Positions 1,100-15,163 of a stretch of 64,000 nt of DNA are shown piece after piece. How positions within the stretch are numbered: position 1 is the first letter of the stretch; each line of letters opens with the position of its first letter. The notes beneath the pieces were generated by a model that saw only the letters and a list, made by a program, of their open reading frames with translations, ran no database searches and had not been told where the DNA came from. The DNA comes from an uncultured Thermoplasmata archaeon (lineage in GTDB: Archaea > Thermoplasmatota > Thermoplasmata > UBA10834). The translations under genes were made by a program, and so were the position numbers. The stretch spans positions 1 through 64,000 of the forward strand of contig CAVRDX010000002.1 of NCBI GenBank assembly GCA_963719945.1, written 5' to 3'.

Positions 1100-1817
1100 A
1101 TGAAGAATCAATACTTTGGAGACTTGAATGATTATCTAAAGTACAGCCTACTGAGATTGCTGGGTGGCAATGGGCTACTGGAGATTGCGATATGCTGGGC
1201 ATTGACCGAGGATGATGGCAGTCTAAATGGAAAGCGGATTAAGTACCTTGAGCAACCAGATGCCTGGGGAAGGCACGATGCGGCAATATTCCGGCTCTTG
1301 AGAGATGAGGTGCTGCACAGAGGGAACAGGCGTGTATCTGCAATCGAGCAGGCTAATGTGCTCAAGAACTGCAGATACTTCAGGAAGATTATGAATGATG
1401 AAGCGAGTTCACGCGAGTTGTATTTCGAAGAGTTTTTCAGATTCGCTGAAGGAGCGGATTTCGTCTTCTTCGACCCTGATAATGGACTTAACGTCAAGTC
1501 TGTGCCTCGGGGAAAGAAGGGATCTTCGAAGTACGTTCTATCAGGAGGAGATTGAGACAGCGTACAACTCAGGACACTCCATACTTCTCTATCAGCATTT
1601 TCCGAGGCAACCGCGTGATTCCTTCATACATGGAATGGTGATGCGACTCAGGGATTTGAATGGCATGACTCGAGTCATATCATACAACAGTTCCCATGTG
1701 GTTTTCCTCCTGCTGCCACAACCTCACCATGAAAAACTGCTCCTCTCGAATACAAGAGCGGTTGCTCAGAGTTGGGGCAATCGCATAAGAATCGGCAACC
1801 ATTCGATACTAGATTGA
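1100..1817 (+). pseudogene. Frameshifted RlmJ/N6-adenine methyltransferase-like hypothetical protein
   Basis: ORFs 1100-1555 and 1395-1817 join into ...SKYVYQEEIET... if one extra T near 1536-1537 is removed. It has an N-terminal QYFGDxxDxxK motif and an FFDPDNG motif resembling motif IV (DPPY). Confidence 0.5.
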
Positions 1818-1849: not shown

Positions 1850-2521
1850 CTAAGTCTTCGGCCAGATTCGTTCCAGTACCCTTACATTTATTGGGTCATT
1901 GTACTTTTCCCGTATAGCTATCATACGGTGGACGGATACTACCACATCAAGAACGTTGGACACACGATCTTCCACGCAGAGTTCCTTTGTAATCGGAGAG
2001 TTGTGTTCAGAAATGCTTAGAAATGACTCACGCCCTCGAGGACGAGGATAATCTGCCAATGTGCTACCTGAGTTGAAACTGCATAGTGTAATGCGGTCGG
2101 TGTATTGTTTTACGAGCGCATCTGTGTCAATGACAATAGCCAATTGAGGTGAGTTCCTGTACTCCTTTGCGTCCATGAATTTTTCTAAATCTTCCCATTT
2201 CACCCAGAAGAAGACTTTTCCATTGATAAGCCGGTACCATTCATTGGTGCTCATTCCATTTGTCAGTGTTGGTGCAAGGCTGTGTGGTGGCATTGGTTTC
2301 TGGTCGCGTAGAATAGCATTAGGAAGCCCATCTCGATGAATCGGCACCTTGTTTTCCCGCCATTCCGATTCCAATTCGTCCCGAGCTGGTCCTTGATAAT
2401 CATACAGAGTCAAGAGAGTCGAAGTGCTTAGTAAGCCATTGCTGACAATACTTGGCCAGCTTCCGTCTTCTGCCATATGAAACATCGAAGGATAATCCTC
2501 AATGAGCTTTGATAACTGCAT
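1850..2521 (-). CDS. DarT-like ADP-ribosyltransferase-fold protein (DUF7002-like)
   Basis: FHM...SI...GLLS, a central VFFW and a C-terminal KELCV glutamate parallel the DarT YH...GLLS/FYF/E motifs. Likely ATG at 2521, 7 nt after the upstream stop. Confidence 0.6.
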   Translation of the reverse strand: MQLSKLIEDYPSMFHMAEDGSWPSIVSNGLLSTSTLLTLYDYQGPARDELESEWRENKVPIHRDGLPNAILRDQKPMPPHSLAPTLTNGMSTNEWYRLINGKVFFWVKWEDLEKFMDAKEYRNSPQLAIVIDTDALVKQYTDRITLCSFNSGSTLADYPRPRGRESFLSISEHNSPITKELCVEDRVSNVLDVVVSVHRMIAIREKYNDPINVRVLERIWPKT

Positions 2522-2528
2522 CAGGAGT

Positions 2529-4142
2529 TCACCACGTTCTTCTATCAATAACACTTCTCTGATTGAACCCTGTGGTAATCAGTGACACTGGCGCGCCTGC
2601 AACTCTCTCAACTTCGAGAACAAGGTTTATTGTATCTTCGGTGAGTTGCTCGAATCGCATTGCATTTCTGTTCTCTTTTCCAATATAGTCTGCGAAGGTA
2701 AGTGCGATATCAGTCGGCCCATTAAGTAGAGAGGCACGACGAAGCAAGTCCCACTCGAACTCGCCAAGTCGGCGCTGTTTTCGAGTAGTAGATGTCTTCT
2801 CATTATTCATCAGTTCCTCGACACTAATTCCTGACCTCTTGCTAAGTTCTTCGTAGGTAATCTCGTGGAGAGGACCAGAGCTGGCATTTTGTGGATTCTG
2901 AACTCTAATGGGATACGTGCGACAAACCATGACGACCCTGCGAACTCGGTTCTGAGCAATTCCCGCTTCCGAGAGACATCCCATGACTGTGGTATCTCTT
3001 GAGGTTACATGTGGGTAGTTTCCGTGATATAGGCTAAGCCCTGTTCCCTGGGTTCCCTCAAGTAGTATTCTATCACCCTGTGAGAACGATTTTCTCAACA
3101 CTTCCTGGGTATCCCCCATGTATGGCTTGAGTTCCGGCACATTCTTCACCAGAGTCATCCCATCATCCTTTCTCTCCATTATTCTCCTTGCTGTTGCAGA
3201 TCCAACCCCCTGTCCAGTGGATCCAATGCAGGCAACCAGGTCTTTCTCCGCATCAATATCTGCATCAGTAATCACAGCTGCATGATGATCTATTGTCAGT
3301 CTATCTGCTTCCACATGACACTCAGCTATTTCCTCCAATAGTTTTGAGACCCTCAGAACAGCTCCAGGCCCGATTAATAGCCTAGCATGACTTCTCTGGG
3401 TGCCTGATGGAAGTTGATGATGAATGTACGTACCACCGTCGCGAAACACAGAATGCCCTGCATTTGGTCCGCCTACTCGTATCAATAGATCGTACTCGCG
3501 GGAGAGGTAATCTGCAATCTGCCCCTTTCCTTCGCTCCCATACTGGCCACCAATCACAACATCGACATAGCCTAGTTCTCGTCCGTTCCAGATGCGCGGA
3601 TGACTGGTCGTCCTCGTCAGCACGTCGGAAGTCGTGCATCGTTGTGTATTGACTACAATGTCGGCAGAAGATGACAGAGCTTCGACCTGTTGCTCAGTTG
3701 CATTCTTCTTCACTTCCGAGTACTCATAATCATTTCCGGGATTGAGCGATCGCCTTTTATTGAACCGCGATTCAAGTTCTTCAGGGGGAGCGGTCAAGTG
3801 GACGTGAATGACTCTTGCCCCGAACGCGTCTCGAATTGCGGCGATTTGGTCAAGCCTTCTGACCGAGTCTATTACAGCGTAAGTAATCTCCTTCTTGGAA
3901 CTCAGCCACTCAACAAATTCCCCACCCACCCATCTTCCATTGGTTTCCTTATCGAGTCGATCTCCCTCCGCCTGGAGCGCAAGCCTATCCTTGTCAAGGG
4001 CTGGACCAATATTTCTGGCCAGAATTTCCTTGGTCTTGAATACATGCATGCCGTACTGTTCCTCCAAATCCACAGCAAGGGTCGATTTACCTGATGAAAT
4101 GGGTCCAGAAAGCAAGATGATTCTTTCCACCATCGAAATCAT
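2529..4142 (-). CDS. purZ: Fusion of a P-loop nucleotide monophosphate kinase and a PurZ0-like adenylosuccinate-synthetase homologue
   Basis: N-terminal GPISSGKST and VIDSVR. C-terminal GGQYGSEGKG (Ser at the PurA catalytic Asp position), GGPNAGH, GSTGQG, EGTQG, RTYPIRV, TTTRKQRR and TFAD. Confidence 0.8.
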   Translation of the reverse strand: MISMVERIILLSGPISSGKSTLAVDLEEQYGMHVFKTKEILARNIGPALDKDRLALQAEGDRLDKETNGRWVGGEFVEWLSSKKEITYAVIDSVRRLDQIAAIRDAFGARVIHVHLTAPPEELESRFNKRRSLNPGNDYEYSEVKKNATEQQVEALSSSADIVVNTQRCTTSDVLTRTTSHPRIWNGRELGYVDVVIGGQYGSEGKGQIADYLSREYDLLIRVGGPNAGHSVFRDGGTYIHHQLPSGTQRSHARLLIGPGAVLRVSKLLEEIAECHVEADRLTIDHHAAVITDADIDAEKDLVACIGSTGQGVGSATARRIMERKDDGMTLVKNVPELKPYMGDTQEVLRKSFSQGDRILLEGTQGTGLSLYHGNYPHVTSRDTTVMGCLSEAGIAQNRVRRVVMVCRTYPIRVQNPQNASSGPLHEITYEELSKRSGISVEELMNNEKTSTTRKQRRLGEFEWDLLRRASLLNGPTDIALTFADYIGKENRNAMRFEQLTEDTINLVLEVERVAGAPVSLITTGFNQRSVIDRRTW

Positions 4143-4157
4143 CTCACAGAATATTCG

Positions 4158-5540
4158 TCAGAAAGATCCGATATGACCGAGAGATGTATCATTCACCAAA
4201 CCATTTTCACAAGGCGTCTCTGATCCAGGAAGTACATATATCGTCACACGATTGCCTCTTCTCACAACTGTATCGTCGATTAGCTCCGCGATGTAACTCC
4301 AATTTCCTCCGGCATATCCTGTTCCGATTCGAGGGATATGAATGCTCGCAGCACGACTCTGAGCGTATTCCGAAAGCTGTTCCAGGCAGTCCCTCAGTTT
4401 GGCATACCTTATCCGGGGCGATGTAGATGGGCCGAAACCATGTTGACAGACCATGCTAAAGATGCACAGATCCGATGAGATTTCGGACACTCGCGTTCTT
4501 CCGAGAGAGAGATTTCCAGGATCATTTGTCGCCCACTTCTTAAAGTCTGATTGGACTGAAGGATACTTGTTGGCGACAGCCTTGGCAAAACCCGCACCCC
4601 AATTTGGAGTCGTATCGTTGACAACTTGAGCTATAATCCGTGGTCCTTGTCCTCTTGGCTCCAGAGCATTGCCACGAATGGTGATTATGAAGGGAGCCTC
4701 TACGGAATCTGGGTCGGCTAGGCTAGCGATGCCCACTACTCTCGGGAATTTGCACCCGGGATAAGGAGGAATCCCTATGCATTCCCAATATATATTAGGA
4801 AAATCCTCTGAAACGTATTCGCTACCTTTTGCCGTATATCCAACAGCAGTACATTGCGAGAGAATCTGGCTTGGGATTTCAAAACCGCGAGGTATTCGAA
4901 TTTCGCTAGTCCTCGATGGTTGAGCATAATCAACTCGATATACGTGAGCTTTCTCATCATCTCTCGTTCTTGCAGCTACTATGACGGTGAATGGCGATCT
5001 AGATACCTTCGCCAATCTGATTGCCAGTGCTTCCATAGAAACTGTCGAATTGAGACTGAAGGTTGAGCATAGATTCCGCGGTGACTTTAGCAGTCGAATC
5101 GAGGTGATGACTAGTGGGCATCAAAATCTCCGCTGCTGCAATATCACATAGCATCTCGAGTTGCCAATCATCTGTTGAGGCTTGATGAACCTTACCTCTG
5201 TTTCTAGCCACCTCTTGGCAGTCCGGGAAGAGTGTATGAGCTATTTCATGTGCAAGAGAAAATCGAATCCGTCGCCTTGATTGATTTGGATTGAACTCTA
5301 TCTGCACTCCAGATTCGCTGGACACCACTCTTGCGTCCAACACATCTTCCTGCGATTAGATCGGAATCCCGAGATGTTTTGCCAACCCAAACGGATCAAA
5401 TGGTGGGCCCGTCCATCCGCCTGAACTGCTTCGAGGACCAGATCCTTAGTCTTCTTGGTGATGAGTGCCACAGGATCATTATCACCTGCAAACTTCGTCA
5501 CACTGTGATTGGTCCAACCTACCTGCTGAGTTTCCACCAT
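4158..5540 (-). pseudogene. ImmA/IrrE metallopeptidase - macrodomain (DarG/TARG1-like) fusion, interrupted; macro part 4158-5036 is open
   Basis: RFSLAHEIAH (HExxH) and ExxCD. Macro motifs VVN...WGAGFAKAV and IHIPRIGTGYAGGNW. Frameshifts near 5418 and 5043, plus an in-frame TAA at about 5356-5358. Confidence 0.7.
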
Positions 5541-7917: not shown

Positions 7918-8388
7918 CTAAACCCTTTTCTCTTTCTTGACGTTTTCCTGTAGCTCACGAATTGCGACCCACATATCTCTGAGTTCCATGGCTAGTCCAG
8001 AACTGATCGGGCCGTCGCACTCCGCAGCATCGCTGGCGCGGAGCTGCTGCCAGTAAAGAGCGTTTGCTGGATCTTTCTTATCACTTTCAAGTCTAGCCAG
8101 ATCCTTCGCCTTTTGCTCCTTCTCCAACATCTCCTTAAGCACAACCTCATGCGCCGGCATGGGTTTACCGCACGCTATGCAGAACTCGTTGTTAGTGTAG
8201 GTCATTTGAGGCCTCAAGTTCTTGAATCCGCATAATGGGCAAATCTTGTCATTTGTTGTCTGGCGGCTCCCAATTGGAGTCGTTACGGCAGCACCGCATC
8301 GTCGGCAAAACCTCGCCCCAGGTACAAGATTCTCGTCGCACTTTGGACAATTCCAGCTCGCAATCTCCATGACCATTCCTCTGGACAC
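7918..8388 (-). CDS. Double zinc-ribbon protein
   Basis: CPKC...FCRRCG and CPLCG...FCIACG. Confidence 0.7.
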   Translation of the reverse strand: MSRGMVMEIASWNCPKCDENLVPGARFCRRCGAAVTTPIGSRQTTNDKICPLCGFKNLRPQMTYTNNEFCIACGKPMPAHEVVLKEMLEKEQKAKDLARLESDKKDPANALYWQQLRASDAAECDGPISSGLAMELRDMWVAIRELQENVKKEKRV

Positions 8389-8830: not shown

Positions 8831-10496
8831 TCACTCCCAATCTGAATCGATGATGGGATATGTACGGGTCCATCGTAGTGTGACTATCTCCTGTATTCTG
8901 GCCAACATCATCTCGATAGGAGATTTTGGTTCGTATGTTCTATGTTCAATTTGAGACGATATTCTCTTGCATGTAATGTCTGCAAGCTTCCTTCCGAACT
9001 CCGGTTTAGAGATTCTCAGAGCAGCAAGTTCCCATGCCATTTCCTGCGCGCATTGTGAGATTTTTAATCCCTCGTCTAGATATTTCTGCAATTCATCAAT
9101 GGTGAATTCATGCTCAATGCCTTCGCTCTCAGAAATCGTATTCAGCGCCTCAATGATTTCTCTATGGGACCAGTTGTCTCCCTCAAATTCATCCTGCCAT
9201 AACATGCAGTTCTCAAGCTCAACCAATCCTTGTCTCGCCAGATCTTTGATTCTGAGCTCTGAATCGTTCTCCTTATCCACAACGATGAACGCTACCCCAT
9301 TCTCATCTCGGATTCTCATCAGTATCTTGCCCCACTTAGTGACGTCGATTGAGGAACCATTCAGACATTCAAGTCTGATTCTACGAGAATCCAAGCGAAT
9401 GCCCATGGCATCTGCAATCATAGGTATTGAAACAGCCTCTGTCTCTCCCTCACACAAGAGATTCGCTATCGGCATCGGATTGAGCCCATATTCTGATAGA
9501 ATATTTGCGAGCACTCTCGTGTCTCTATAATCCACCTCCTTATGATATCTCTTGAGTTTCCATAATCCCTTCCGCCCGTCAAGCAACGTCATCCGGATGA
9601 CGGAGATCTTCTGCACCGATATCATGAAGGGCGAATTTCAGGATATATGCCATATCATACAATTCTTGTGCAAGGAGTGCGCGATTCTTCAATTTCCCCA
9701 ACATATCTCTTCTTGCGTGTCTTATAAGCACATACCAATATCTGAGGGGATCAATATCTGTTGCTATTCTTGAGAGTCGGATATATTCTGCAGAGAGTTG
9801 TTCCTTTTCGAAGCCGAATCTGAGACAGGTTTCTGGAACATCTAGCGATTTGCACCAATCAAGCCATGATAAATACTCCGGTTTATGCGATTCTATTCTT
9901 GAACATCTAAAGCGGTGACGAATTCTGGGTAGATAGCAATCCCCCAATACCATAAGGAGCCCCTGGAGTCTCAAATCACGATTCATCAGTTTGAGAGAAG
10001 CCGATTCTGCCAGTCTCTGTTCTGATACAAGGCGATTCTTCCAGAGTTTGAAACCCTCCTCTGAAATGAGTGTGCTTCGTCGAAAATAGACTGAGAAACG
10101 CGTATGCAATTCAAACACTTGCAGTTCTTGAAATGGGTGATAAAGGGTGATCTTCTTTGATTCTCCAGATTCATCGATATACTCAGACCATGGCAGATGA
10201 CTCTCAGGAGTTGGATATTCAAGCTTTTCCTGCCTGTCGTACTCTCTAAGGTCTCTATGTTCAGTTGAGTATGGCCAGTATGGACTATCGTCTTCGTCAG
10301 GTTCTTCTTTGCGAATAGGGGATAATCGCAGAATTGGATGTAGGTAGCCCTCTTTCTCCCAGGATTCCAAATCCTCCAAGGCAATTCCAACACCTCGTTT
10401 TCTCATCCGATCCACAAGTTCATTGGCAGTCAGAACACTCTCTTGAGGAAAATCTTGATTGATGAATATCTTGCCTAGAATGAATTCATTAGTCAT
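8831..10496 (-). pseudogene. Frameshifted protein with a C-terminal OLD-type TOPRIM domain
   Basis: Removing one extra base near 9588 gives ...HPDDLLDGRK.... TOPRIM motifs LLCEGETE, VVDKEND and EFE. Confidence 0.6.
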
Positions 10497-10788: not shown

Positions 10789-12494
10789 TCAAGACTCCAG
10801 CAACTCAATGAATTGCTTGAGTGCCAGGTATATCTCAGAATCGATTTCTTCCTTACGGAGGGATATAGCGGCATAACTCGTTGATACAGCAACCTTGTAT
10901 TCTTTAGTGAGTACATGATTCATGCGAGAGAAGAATTCCTTTCCTGAGATAACTTTGATTCGGAAACTCAAGTCTTTCCACTTTTCATCCAGTTCCTCAA
11001 TTATCGTTTTGGCGATAGTTGATGGGTCTTCGCCTTTTCTTGCAGGATTCTTGATTCTGTGGCCAAGCATCTGGGCATTCACGTCATTTTTCATCTCATC
11101 AGTGATACGAGTAATCAATGTGATAAAAAGCTCCCTGGCAGGTACAGAACTATCATCTCCATGCCTCTTCTTGTACTGGGTGACAAACATACGATATAAT
11201 GCATCAGGATGAATCAAGTAGTTCTCTATTTCCTTTCTGGACCATACATGTATACTCACTGTCCTGTTGTATTAGCGTGCTGACTATTTGGGCAACTTCC
11301 TCATCAGATCGATAGTCCTATCTAGAATCACTTAGCATTTGATTCTTTCACCAAAGGCGTTCTTAAATAGCCAATCTACATGTTTCAATCGTTCCCAATT
11401 TGAAACCCCTTCCAACGGAATAGTCGAGAAATTCCTTTCTGCGAACTGATGTAGGCCAAGAATCCTGGAAAACCGGAGGATGAACTTGAAATCGCTGCCT
11501 TCAACAAACAGGCAGGTACTGCCCTTTAGAAGATGTGCTAATCTGAGATTCTCGATTGAGCCGAGCTCAAGGATGCATCTCTGAAGTTCATCGACATTCT
11601 CCAGTCTGACTGCTTCTTGGAGTCTGGAATCGACTGAGAGGACATCACCTGGCTCGACCTCATCAATAATATCTACAGCATGAGTGGCAATTATTACCTG
11701 AGACGATTCTCTTTGCATATATCAACGAGTTTCTTCTGCATGTCTGAGTGGAGATATATATCTGGTTCGTAAGAATCAGAGTCTCTCTTTTTCCGAGCTT
11801 TATTAGATGAGTCAGTATTTGCAGCCAGACCTGAAGACCATGTCCTGCCCAGAAGATTTCACGGTCCATGCGGTTCTCCTTGAAATACATGTAGATTACG
11901 TTATTCCATTGATCAGGTTCCGGAGGGGAGATTTCACAATTTGGCCATGTACGCGTGAGCAGCTCGCTGAATTCATCAAATCCATCTGGAAATGCATGCC
12001 AGATGTTCCGGAAATGACGGGGCGTCAGATGTGATATCATGACCGTTCTAAGATAATTGTCGGTGACCAGTGATTCCTCTTCATCAAAGGCTCCCACCGG
12101 AGGAACGATTCCTGAGAGTTCTCTCGAACTCCATGCGAATGATCTTCTTATTTCCAACCAAATATCCATTCTTGTAGTACTCTATGTAGAACTCCTTGTC
12201 CTTTGGAAATACAGCCTTAATCTCTTTGCCGGATGAGAAAACCGCTCTGATTACTGCATCATCGTCTGTATAGTCGTGCCTTATGTTAATTGCAGAAAAC
12301 GGAAGATCGCGAGGCTCCAGTATGAGGTCTCTGCGGTAGGCGCCGTATCTCTGGATGTTTGATATCAATCTGAGGGCATCCACGATTGTAGATTTCCCTG
12401 AATTATTCTTGCCCACTATGATATTGAAATTGTTGAATCTCACAGAATATTTTCGAAAGCACCTGAAATTCTCCATTGACAGTTCTATCAGCAA
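10789..12494 (-). pseudogene. OLD-family ATP-dependent nuclease (ABC ATPase + TOPRIM), multiply disrupted
   Basis: ENFRCF, GKNNSGKST, GHGLQ, restored DEPDIYLH, IIATH, FVEGSD, restored LDRDY and KEIENYL. At least five indels and one TAA. Confidence 0.8.
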
Positions 12495-12541: not shown

Positions 12542-14558
12542 TCACATTTCATCGAATCCGGATTTTCTTTCATCTAGCAACTTCTCAAATATATCTTTCA
12601 AGGCGATGACCTGCACGAAGTAGTGCCCATGCTTGACCCTGTAGTTCACATCTGGAAGGTAGTCTGTGAAACTTGTGTCTGATTCCTTGTTTACGACATT
12701 GTAGTTGGGAGGAAGTTCTGTATTGGCGTCGGCCTCCCAGACAACTGACAAGTTGATATCCTCGAACCTCTGCTTTGGTGCCTCGTCCGATTCACAGAGC
12801 GCGCAAAGGGTCGGCTTGAATTCAACCGTTAGCATTGTGATGTCCGATTCTCTAGCGATGGGAAGATCCGGGGCAAAGCAAATGCCGTCGTAGACCGTAA
12901 TATCGTTCAGTCTCAGCCAATTGTATCGAGTCAACAATCCCCTGCCTACCATGTGGAAATACACCGAGACAAGGTCCTCCTCAGTTTCTGGAAGCGTCGA
13001 CCTCCCGAGAATGTCAAGCATGATATCCCTATTTCTATGGTCGCTCCGCTCGACCTTCGCATTCTCACGGCTCTTGTTGAATATCTTTCCGAATATGGTT
13101 GGGTCATAGCTCTCTTCTTCTGCGGACAATCAGTTTGGCCAATTTGTGCAAGTTCCTCCACAGGTCCTTCATGAGGTTGTTATACGCGTGTTTGGATTTC
13201 GGATGGAGATTCCTCTTGCCATATCCAAGAGTCTCGTCAACATCAAGGACCAAATGGACCGAAGGGACGTGTCCCAATTCAGCTCCTGATGCGTCCAGGG
13301 TGATATCTGTCGGCAAGCCATTGACCGAAACACCGAGAGATGCCTTGTGGGCCAACGGATTCTTCAAGAATGGACGTGACGCGATGAACAATATTCCCCC
13401 ATTCACTCTTGAAAGAACCGTCCTATGTCTGTATACATTATCTTGATCCATTATCATTATGTTCGGTTTGGTGGGGTCCGAAGGGTCTAAAGGCTTCCTC
13501 TTTCTAAGTTTGCCTACAAGTAATTTGATATCGTCTATGTTGAGTTTCTGATAAAAGACCGTAGGGGTTTCGAACCTCTTTCCGCTCTCAAGTATCGATG
13601 AGAAATTACTCACGATTTTCGGCTGTTGTTTCGGCGCTAGTGATTCAATCATCTCCTTGAAATCTATATACTTGACATTGCCTGTCAATTCAAGTGCCTT
13701 ATTGGCTGGGAAGGGTTTAACTCCAGGTATTAGGTATTCTTCCTGCGAACTCTCAGGGAAGTCACATATAACTTCGAGTTTGAAGTCGATGTCTGGTAGT
13801 CCGTTTGATCCGATCAGTCGAGAAACACATCCCGCATAGCTCTCTTTCTTGAGGTATGTCATCAGTATCTTCATTGGGTCCAACGGTGGCATCGAACGTC
13901 CATCATCGGTGTCAATGTTTCCTTCTTCTGTAGTTTTCGTATTGTCGATTTCAACTGTGCTGAAAAAATCCATAATACGGTCGTTTATGAAATCCCATAC
14001 TGAGTAATCATGCAATCTGATTTCCACGACAGTGCCTGACTTGCCATCAGTTTTCGATGCAGTAGGTCCTGCAAGACTTGCCGGAAATTCCGGGCTGCTG
14101 TAGTTGAAGAAATCATGCAATTCAAGTTCCCAACTTTGGTGTGCATGAATTGTCTTGATTCTGAAAAACTCTGAAGTGAAGACAGAGGATTTTATGCCAA
14201 CTCCTTGGGAGCCTTTGAGTAATTTCCTAATCCTTCTGTCAGAAATCTTACCTTTGGCTCCGGAACCGAGGTGCACAAAATGCCCGCATTTCTCAAGGGG
14301 TACCCCCTTACCGTTATCGGAGATTCTCACCAAATTCGACCCTATGGCTAGCCTGATGCTGACGGTGGGTTTCTCGCCTCCAGTGTCGACCATGCTGCCA
14401 TCTTCATTTACAAATGAATCAATGGCGTTCTGAAGCGGTTCCTGAATAAGTCGCCATTCCGGAGGATATGTCTCAATTGTATTCCCGAGCAGCACTCTTA
14501 TCAGATTCTCTTGGACCGTTCCAGACCTGGATTTCCTCTGGCATTCCCAACCCACCAT
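12542..14558 (-). pseudogene. GHKL (HATPase/MORC-like) ATPase fused to a PD-(D/E)xK nuclease-like domain; one frameshift
   Basis: EPLQNAIDS, DNGKG, GSQGVGIKS, GTVV. An extra base near 13125 separates a C-terminal domain with YDG...VEFK. Confidence 0.7.
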
Positions 14559-14749: not shown

Positions 14750-15163
14750 GTGCCTCGAGCGAGTTCTGAATCCGTTATGAAATCAATGAAATCCAATCGT
14801 GGAAAGAACACAAGACCCGAGATTCTGCTCAGGTCTGCGCTCTGGACCTCTGGCATAAGAGGATATCGATTGCACAGGAAGGGCATCCCCGGACGGCCAG
14901 ACATATCTTTCGGCAATCAAAGGGTCGCGGTATTTGTGAACGGCTGCTATTGGCACCGATGTCCAAAATGCTCACTCCCGCTCCCAAAGACACATATGGG
15001 ATTCTGGACGAAGAAGTTCGAATTGAACGTCAAGCGGGACGAGAGGAAGATTACCGAACTCGAGGCAGATGGATGGCTGCCGCTGGTGATCTGGGAATGT
15101 GAGATAAAGAATGATATCGACAAGTGCGTCGAGCGCGTCAGGCAAGCTCTCCGAGCGCGCTGA
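14750..15163 (+). CDS. vsr: Very short patch repair endonuclease
   Basis: TRPE, GRPDI, FVNGCYWHRC, FW..K...NVKRD, IWECE. Confidence 0.92.
   Translation: MPRASSESVMKSMKSNRGKNTRPEILLRSALWTSGIRGYRLHRKGIPGRPDISFGNQRVAVFVNGCYWHRCPKCSLPLPKTHMGFWTKKFELNVKRDERKITELEADGWLPLVIWECEIKNDIDKCVERVRQALRAR

Follow-up and report, generated by a model that had tools for sequence, protein, structure and literature searches.

The window considered here is a stretch of 64,000 nucleotides (contig CAVRDX010000002.1, positions 1 to 64,000, assembly GCA_963719945.1) from an uncultured Thermoplasmata archaeon. Close to its start lies a gene cassette whose central member encodes a nucleoside monophosphate (NMP) kinase-like domain fused to a short synthetase of the adenylosuccinate type that resembles PurZ of phages with 2-aminoadenine (Z) genomes. 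The fusion gene is followed by a DUF7002 gene, which encodes a predicted DarT-like ADP-ribosyltransferase (ART), and is preceded by a gene for an M78 peptidase fused to a macro domain; a gene for a protein with a predicted RlmJ-like fold converges on them from the other side (Table 1). The first-pass annotation had described the fusion as a PurZ0-type synthetase joined to its own nucleotide kinase, and the open reading frame (ORF) exists as claimed, on the minus strand, which had not been given. What went unnoticed at that stage was the context of the gene: it belongs to a conserved cassette that is found in defence islands and also encodes a DarT-like ART and an M78-macro protein. The probable true start of the fusion is the ATG at 4133, where both the homologue alignment and the source gene call begin, giving a protein of 534 amino acids (aa). 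As a whole, the cassette looks like a virus-defence or toxin module and not like a part of ordinary purine synthesis.

The N-terminal part of the fusion, some 180 residues, had been read as a P-loop kinase fold, and the profile matches support a fused NMP-kinase-like domain. Pfam recognises AAA_18 (2.9e-10) and AAA_33 (3.2e-6) within residues 9-154, and a profile of the domain compared with the PDB retrieves first the AdkA-like nucleotide kinase SSO1041 of Sulfolobus (~1e-7) and then adenylate kinases. The PHROG match is a deoxynucleoside monophosphate (dNMP) kinase (9e-7), and the PADLOC match is the kinase region of an anti-phage dCTP deaminase (1.7e-7; NCBIfam 3e-4). The Walker A motif reads GPISSGKST, and the residues invariant in the family include D92, R95, R126, D161 and R177. 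Such an arrangement follows the design of DcdV and the anti-phage dCTP deaminases, in which an N-terminal P-loop kinase-like domain precedes a nucleotide-converting enzyme, and the kinase domains of the two are detectably similar. The fusion differs from them in that its C-terminal part is a PurZ-like ligase (Adenylsucc_synt) instead of a deaminase, that its chemistry concerns purines and not cytosine nucleotides, and that its ART partner is obligatory.

From residue 195 to the C-terminus (~345 aa) the fusion matches Adenylsucc_synt (7.5e-57). The motifs listed in the first pass, GSEGKG (residues 202-207), EGTQG (362-366), RTYPIRV (408-414) and TFAD (482-485), are all present and are invariant or nearly so, and NAGH, GSTGQG, EGTQG, VTSRD, RTYPIRV and LTFADY are conserved across the family. 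Of 84 fusion rows scanned, 77 have GSEGKG; in the remaining 7 the domain cut was misplaced, and the motif fell outside the searched stretch. Three features set the family apart from PurA and are common to it, PurZ and PurZ0. First, residue 13 of the catalytic loop is Ser, while all 24 housekeeping PurAs compared have Asp (GD[ETG]GKG in 23 and GDEAKG in one). Second, the aspartate/nucleotide site has the form RxxPIRV instead of the KxY(V/T)TRV of PurA, with Y410, P411, I412, R413 and V414 invariant among the fusions. Third, the loop before RR, which is TGRxRR in PurA, has lost its Gly. The Ser, Arg and Ile substitutions thus stand as PurZ-type marks, as first proposed, since they are found in the fusion and in phage PurZ/PurZ0 and in no PurA of the alignment. 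The retained Asp of TxxD was also read correctly: the guanine-specificity motif of the fusion, LTF(A/V/T)DY, keeps this residue like PurA and PurZ0, whereas PurZ has LNFxNY. The synthetase domain looks catalytically competent, because none of the equivalents of N38, H41, T129 and Q224 varies in the family, nor does the carboxylate-binding Arg.

PurZ and PurZ0 are N6-succino-2-amino-2′-deoxyadenylate synthases of Z-genome phages (PDB 6FM1, 7ODX, 7VF6) and belong, with the fusion, to one superfamily of short architecture. PurZ0 uses GTP, and PurZ uses ATP. One sentence of a Nucleic Acids Research paper of 2026 (PMC12884076) reverses this order; the introduction of the same paper has PurZ using ATP, and the reversal is probably a slip. 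The P-loops of the three differ, with GSEGKG in the fusion, GSEAKG in PurZ0 and GSTGKG in PurZ. The fusion also differs from the phage enzymes in being cellular, in archaea and bacteria, in carrying the kinase domain, and in its partners, which are a DarT-like ART and an M78-macro protein instead of the Z-cluster genes (DatZ/MazZ/DpoZ or DutZ/DmtZ). The short archaeal PurA (Pyrococcus horikoshii, PDB 5K7X/2D7U; NF003295) belongs to the same length class and has the same C-terminal guanine-binding elements as the fusion. It differs by its GDEGKG, KxYVTRV and TKxD motifs, and it is a single housekeeping copy without a kinase domain or cassette.

The relationship of these enzymes was assessed with quick maximum-likelihood (ML) trees under LG+G4 and LG+C20+F+G4 with posterior mean site frequencies (PMSF), rooted on long PurAs, with Shimodaira-Hasegawa-like approximate likelihood ratio (SH-aLRT) support and approximately unbiased (AU) tests; the short PurAs in the sample came from one archaeal phylum only. 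The fusions are monophyletic (99-100) and share a Ser-13 clade with PurZ and PurZ0 of phages, at SH-aLRT 99 under both models. The ML phylogeny that the first-pass annotation had called for, naming a grouping with canonical PurA as part of the outcome against it, places the fusion with PurZ/PurZ0 instead, although the AU tests do not reject a break-up of this clade (see below). With sequences of viral contigs added (18 stand-alone and 3 fused), the support of the Ser clade is still 99 and the fusions still form a separate lineage. In this extended tree PurZ0 and its viral relatives have their own clade (100) within the phage clade (90), and the fusions branch outside both the PurZ and the PurZ0 clade, while a sister relation of the fusion and PurZ0 is not rejected (AU p = 0.41 and 0.40). 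Judged from the residues and the trees, the name PurZ-like is well founded for the synthetase domain; the narrower label PurZ0-type is not established.

Several further sequences belong to the surroundings of this tree. The paper mentioned above (PMC12884076) has four archaeal sequences with Ser or Gly at the catalytic site that are basal to PurZ and PurZ0 and are not studied further there; these four may belong to the fusion family. Many viral contigs from IMG/VR (loci L143-L217) encode stand-alone PurZ-like proteins with the GSEGKG loop, as found by a search whose pattern itself favoured GSE, and some of these are 40-42% identical to the fusion synthetase domain, which is closer than the reference PurZ and PurZ0. 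A small viral clade (L159, L166 and L168) branches apart from the fusions and from the main phage clade. An example of a mixed type is the purA gene of Bacillus phage vB_BpsS-140 (L114, 350-1471), which combines the fusion-type GSEGKG with a PurZ-type LNFANY; the enzyme is sister to the GSTGKG PurZ clade and looks like an intermediate form.

The genome from which the window derives (1.78 Mb in 4 contigs, 87% complete, scoring 1498 bits with the archaeal small-subunit rRNA model against 1098 with the bacterial one) also has a canonical long purA at C1:390788-392050 (579 bits). The first-pass annotation had proposed looking for such a gene, and its presence makes the fusion an extra paralog. The host PurB is present as well. 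Among 40 genomes of relatives, sampled from the genus to the class level, none has the fusion: in 39 of them the fusion query gives only the weak partial matches typical of canonical long PurA, and the fortieth is a genome of 55% completeness. A housekeeping PurA, of the long or the short type, is likewise retained in five further archaea that carry the fusion. The best hidden Markov model (HMM) match of the fusion is the archaeal PurA model NF003295, but its 282 bits stay below the curated cut-off of 368, as do the scores with TIGR00184 (201 against 395.55) and NF002223 (175 against 402). Databases annotate the fusion genes as adenylosuccinate synthase or synthetase of purine biosynthesis. 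The fusion is not the housekeeping PurA, because the genome has a separate canonical purA and none of the 40 relatives has the fusion.

The partner encoded directly downstream is predicted to have a DarT-like ADP-ribosyltransferase fold. Its AlphaFold2 (AF2) model, with a mean predicted local distance difference test score (pLDDT) of 96, shows a compact single ART domain without a recognisable ligand-binding domain. Foldseek matches the model to DarT1 (8baq, E 7.4e-5, probability 1.00), and with VIA-align the seven top matches are all DarT (Z scores 10.4, 10.1 and 9.0-8.8), followed by Tpt1 (8.2) and toxin ARTs (≤7.4). The similarity concerns the fold: by sequence, Pfam gives DUF7002 only, and the PDB profile search reaches DarT1 at E 0.43 through the N-terminal motif only. 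In 45 sequences F104, W106 and E180 are invariant, and H15 and F105 are nearly so (≥90%). The junction with the 3′ end of the fusion gene, noted as an overlap of a few bases (DUF7002 ATG at 2521, fusion stop codon at 2529-2531), suggests translational coupling. The prediction of a complex between the fusion and DUF7002 scored 0.00 with its controls not run and is not evidence either way.

The pairing of an ART with an adenylosuccinate synthetase is already in the literature. A survey of Legionella ARTs (BMC Genomics 2025, PMC12522546) described the DarT-like family of Lmac_3114 with the motifs Hxx/FFW/xxE. In 60% of cases it reported adenylosuccinate synthetase as a neighbour, and for P. aeruginosa it described an operon that combines AAA, adenylosuccinate synthetase and NUDIX domains. 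The three motifs correspond to H15, F104-F105-W106 and E180 of DUF7002, and by this correspondence the two are almost certainly the same ART family. The survey reports the family in bacteria only and takes its partner for a regular enzyme of purine synthesis through which the availability of NAD+ is modulated; it does not mention that Ser replaces Asp at the PurZ-type site or that the AAA domain is of the kinase type, nor does it describe the M78-macro partner or the defence-island setting. Literature searches on DUF7002, on PurA-like proteins in defence, on PurZ with DarT, and on adenylosuccinate with ART and macrodomain defence found nothing relevant.

Relatives of the fusion occur in 507 of ~186,000 species genomes, in archaeal and bacterial phyla, and the carrier groups include Thermoplasmata, Nitrososphaerota, Bathyarchaeia, Dehalococcoidia, Acidobacteriota, Planctomycetota, Verrucomicrobiota, Actinomycetota and Pseudomonadota. 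Burkholderia thailandensis, Ralstonia, Rhizobium, Sinorhizobium and Agrobacterium are cultured carriers, and in Burkholderia, Ralstonia, Rhizobium and Agrobacterium the fusion is found on plasmids. Orthologues at 56-86% identity sit in a conserved cassette, whose composition was counted at the 80 best loci, all from other genomes. DUF7002 is present at 79 of them and in 74 of the 79 lies downstream on the same strand, as a rule directly next to the fusion. The macro-fused M78 peptidase (~466 aa) is present at 73 loci, nearly always directly upstream. The p237/p239 family, to which the RlmJ-like protein belongs, is found downstream on either strand at 23 loci, and a DCD-like gene, which this window does not have, is found downstream at 7. 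The invariant core consists of two genes, the fusion and DUF7002, because plasmids of B. thailandensis and R. leguminosarum carry that pair alone. The genes around the cassette are for the most part of restriction-modification, helicase, Abi, Kiwa and Schlafen type or encode integrases, and transposases are also nearby. The cassette is accessory and horizontally mobile, because the fusion was found in none of the 40 relatives, is scattered over archaeal and bacterial phyla in 507 species genomes and is present on plasmids. In ‘Ca. Gagatemarchaeum’ (G044, contig C92:70780-73630, loci L106 and L109) two fusion genes lie ~1 kb apart on opposite strands.

The upstream protein is composed of an M78 peptidase domain, a middle region without a family assignment and a macro domain. 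Compared with the PDB, its profile matches macro domains 2afc, 2fg1 and 5e3b (1e-46 to 1e-50), IrrE (7e-12) and CapP (2.5e-9); on sequence grounds the macro domain is assigned to the TARG1/ALC1/SCO6735 class. The M78 domain also gives a PADLOC capP match, and its HExxH motif is invariant (H98, E99, H102). It therefore resembles the CapH/CapP and IrrE/ImmA regulators and differs from them by its fusion to a macro domain through the uncharacterised middle region. No separate helix-turn-helix (HTH) repressor was recognised. At the Thermoplasmata loci that lack M78, it was considered whether the upstream proteins are macro-only variants; this was rejected, because they bear no relation to the macro protein (one kind is a short-chain dehydrogenase, the other matches nothing in Pfam).

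Three other partners accompany the cassette at some loci. The p237 protein has no match by sequence in Pfam, NCBIfam, PHROGs, PADLOC or the PDB; the fold search alone, on an AF2 model with pLDDT 87, gave RlmJ (Foldseek probability 1.00, E 3e-4), of the N6-adenine-methyltransferase fold (RlmJ/DUF519-like). The DCD-like accessory protein (L004:9149-10042 and L006:9050-9958) has a dCTP-deaminase/dUTPase fold and a C-terminal region of ~90 aa with weak MotA/SLATT/EamA-type membrane matches; the protein may represent a membrane effector equipped with a domain for nucleotide binding. Extra PurB-type paralogs stand beside the cassette in three Dehalococcoidia genomes, at L032:8941-10299 (plus strand), L027:8458-9798 (minus) and L057:3064-4563 (minus). 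They score 511, 293 and 245 bits, against 504, 516 and 293 for the PurB elsewhere in the respective genomes, the last of these being a housekeeping purB truncated by the contig (G107); two of the three cassette-side copies are thus divergent (293 and 245 bits; cut-off 326). PurB converts the product of PurZ to dZMP in phage-infected cells, and for this reason the paralogs support a succino-purine product of the fusion.

In the window itself, the cassette is colinear with its nearest relative (locus L135), with 78% nucleotide identity over 4.6 kb. The fusion and DUF7002 genes are intact, and the M78-macro and RlmJ-like genes are frameshifted. The frameshifts of the M78-macro gene were located by tblastn against the intact 466-aa orthologues of L008 and L135, and an ORF of 292 aa (5036..4158) still encodes the middle region and the whole macro domain. 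A generally error-prone assembly was ruled out as their source by the long ORFs in the rest of the window and by the sites, which are not long homopolymers. Because of these two observations, and because other genes of the island are also broken, a genuine decay of the island is the likelier cause, ahead of an assembly error, though a local error is possible.

Table 1. Coordinates of the cassette, its domains and the neighbouring genes in the window
Feature	Position	Strand	Remarks
Small protein	97-669	plus	Double zinc-ribbon N-terminus; flanks the cassette region
p237/p239-family gene (RlmJ/DUF519-like methyltransferase fold, predicted)	1100..1817	plus, convergent	One single-base frameshift near 1538 (tblastn against L008/L135)
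DUF7002 gene	1850..2521	minus	223 aa from ATG 2521; intact; Pfam DUF7002 2.7e-53
Kinase::PurZ-like synthetase fusion gene	2529..4142	minus	537 aa from ATG 4142; stop codon 2529-2531; intact
PurZ-like short adenylosuccinate-synthetase-type domain	2532..3566	minus	Residues 193-537; GSEGKG at 3522-3539
N-terminal NMP-kinase-like P-loop domain	3588..4142	minus	Residues 1-185
M78 (IrrE/CapP-like) peptidase::macro domain gene	4158..5540	minus	Two single-base frameshifts, near 5416-5417 and 5043
Small protein	7918-8388	minus	Double zinc-ribbon N-terminus (DZR/Zn_Ribbon_1); flanks the cassette region
Separate ORF	8831-9625	minus	Weak OLD-like TOPRIM match
GajA/AriA/OLD-type ABC ATPase	10789-12494	minus	At least 4 consecutive ORFs; N-terminal piece 12084-12494: AAA_15 4.8e-16, AriA 2e-15
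195-aa protein	12542-13129	minus	No family; adjoins the GHKL gene
484-aa protein	13104-14558	minus	Weak GHKL (HATPase_c) N-terminus
Vsr very-short-patch repair endonuclease	14750-15163	plus	3.7e-21

The broken GajA/AriA/OLD-type ATPase is a second decayed defence gene of the same island. Vsr, encoded farther along, usually accompanies a C5-cytosine methyltransferase. One of the two zinc-ribbon proteins that flank the cassette region also appears to have a C-terminal membrane segment. No tRNA gene that could mark an integration site was found in positions 1-30000 of the window.

The substrates, products, triggers and defence role of the cassette are inferred from these observations as follows. 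The PurZ-like domain would phosphorylate O6 of a guanine mononucleotide ((d)GMP, not IMP) with GTP, and aspartate would then be added to give an N6-succino-2-aminoadenine nucleotide. The fused kinase may transfer a phosphoryl group at a neighbouring step, either to produce the monophosphate that the synthetase uses or to phosphorylate what the synthetase makes; the first-pass annotation had proposed that it could take dZMP to dZDP. PurB, of the host or linked to the cassette, may convert the product of the synthetase to the 2-aminoadenine nucleotide. Upon phage attack, the guanine (deoxy)nucleotide pool would be turned into non-canonical purine nucleotides, by which replication is starved or poisoned. 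Alongside, the DarT-like enzyme would ADP-ribosylate nucleic acid, the macro domain would remove the ADP-ribosyl mark, and the M78 domain would gate the system. This reading, a guanine nucleotide pool diverted or poisoned together with DarT-like ADP-ribosylation, is tentatively preferred, with a probability of roughly 45%. Part of its logic is that of DarTG, in which DarT ADP-ribosylates bases of single-stranded DNA and the macro domain of DarG reverses the modification. The cassette is like DarTG in the predicted fold of DUF7002, in the TARG1-class macro domain next door at most loci, though not in the plasmid versions, and in the defence-island setting. It differs in the fusion partner of the macro domain, which is an M78 peptidase and not the C-terminal domain of DarG, and DarTG has no counterpart to the kinase-PurZ-like enzyme, the constant extra partner of the cassette.

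Several points weigh against this reading. As a match of the synthetase domain, the short archaeal PurA of Pyrococcus (192 bits) scores ahead of PurZ of phiVC8 (121) and S-2L (113) and of PurZ0 of Archimedes (104), and with 210.7 bits the fusion is below the cut-off of 300 of the NCBIfam PurZ model NF038379. Trees in which the Ser clade is broken up cost 29-34 log-likelihood units but are not rejected by the AU tests (p = 0.12 and 0.09); the change of Asp to Ser could therefore have arisen convergently, and the enzyme might use a substrate other than (d)GMP. The specificity of the synthetase for deoxy- or ribonucleotides cannot be read from its residues. The PurB paralogs are present at only 3 of the 80 loci, all in Dehalococcoidia. 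The macro domain is missing within ±5-6 kb at two plasmid loci, which fits a simple DarTG-like toxin-antitoxin scheme badly, and a role in pure depletion or poisoning leaves the ART as invariant partner unexplained. In the window the regulator/antidote gene is frameshifted, and the local copy of the cassette may be non-functional. PADLOC (2023) gives no system-level match for the cassette, and a literature search found no experimental work on any member of the family.

The invariance of the ART can also be seen from another side. The dGMP set free when a phage degrades host DNA might be made into a succino-2-aminoadenine mono- or diphosphate, by which, as second messenger or cofactor, the DarT-like effector would be activated; sensing and signal production would in that case fall to the fusion, which would not be an effector itself. 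The core of exactly two genes, an enzyme and an ART, resembles sensor-effector pairs, the DCD-like protein added at some loci has a C-terminal membrane region and could be a ligand-gated effector, and a preprint of 2026 offers a precedent for a dNMP as danger signal. The architecture of DUF7002, one compact ART domain with no evident place for a ligand, speaks against such activation, and this scheme is considered unlikely; its more specific form, an immune signal synthase whose dGMP-derived (succino-)2-aminoadenine nucleotide activates, or is used by, the DarT-like ART, is regarded as somewhat more doubtful still.

The plasmid location, the neighbouring integrases and transposases, the patchy distribution and the DarTG-like logic of ART and macro domain would also suit a selfish addiction module. 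In that case the cassette would stabilise mobile elements in the manner of a toxin-antitoxin system, with the ART as toxin and the macro domain and/or the fusion as antidote, and would have no primary role in phage defence. Toxin-antitoxin function and defence are not exclusive, however, as DarTG does both, the neighbours are mainly defence genes, and a two-domain enzyme of 530 aa with a fully conserved active site exceeds the needs of an antidote; an addiction module is likewise considered unlikely.

The two tightly coupled core genes might, furthermore, be connected by their chemistry. The fusion would supply the substrate of the ART, which would act on exocyclic purine amines and have as its target 2-aminoadenine nucleotides, either free or incorporated in replicating DNA. 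DarT1 ADP-ribosylates N2 of guanine, and the best structural match of DUF7002 is this guanine-specific DarT1; the RlmJ-like partner with its N6-adenine-methyltransferase fold (23 of 80 loci) also points to chemistry at an exocyclic purine amine. The argument is nevertheless entirely inferential, since a similarity of fold carries no base specificity and the VIA-align Z scores of DarT1 (10.4) and of thymidine-specific DarTs (9.0-10.1) are close. Such a supply of substrate is rated as quite unlikely.

The relation to PurZ/PurZ0 and a few full-length fusions on contigs classed as viral raise the question of a resident virus or mobile element for which the cassette makes dZTP for whole-genome replacement of A by Z. 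The first-pass annotation had found no DatZ, MazZ or DNA polymerase gene in the window and had argued against whole-genome substitution. Among the genes searched for across the host genome, neither a family-A DNA polymerase (PolA/DpoZ) nor the MazG-like PF12643 was found at 87% completeness; a DUF550 search was uninformative, its control being silent, and DatZ, DutZ and DmtZ were not searched for. The earlier argument is upheld, and whole-genome substitution is unlikely, because no PolA/DpoZ or MazG-like gene was found in the genome and the constant partners of the fusion, an ART and a macro protein, are not Z-cluster genes. In addition, no viral structural or replication genes were found around the cassette, and only ~6 of 126 viral-contig matches are fusions. 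Z-genome biosynthesis is therefore very improbable. Least probable of all is a back-up or specialised housekeeping adenylosuccinate synthetase (IMP to adenylosuccinate) with a kinase for AMP/ADP metabolism, for which the database annotation and the best HMM match speak, but against which stand the Ser in place of the catalytic Asp13 throughout the family, the scores below every PurA cut-off, the canonical purA of the host, the absence from the relatives searched and the defence-island context.

To our knowledge, PurZ-type enzymes have so far been known only as the first step in the synthesis of phage Z genomes. The fusions are, in the ML trees, a sister lineage of the phage enzymes in hundreds of archaeal and bacterial species, always fused to a kinase and paired with a DarT-like ART in defence islands and on plasmids, and the database label of an adenylosuccinate synthetase of purine biosynthesis is a mislabel for their genes. 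The cassette has a real chance of hiding new biochemistry, which is directly testable in the cultured carriers and, following PMC12522546, in P. aeruginosa. The lineage would also bear on the origin of phage PurZ, at the base of which the published trees noted only a few unexplained archaeal Ser/Gly sequences. If the proposed chemistry is true, cells make succino-2-aminoadenine or Z nucleotides for conflict and not for a genome. Nucleotide pools might thereby be depleted or poisoned in a novel manner, or the nucleotide might serve as a new kind of signal; were the fusion a signal synthase, its product would open a new class of messengers, nucleotides modified in the base, and the Z-base pathway would be seen in use by cells for the first time.

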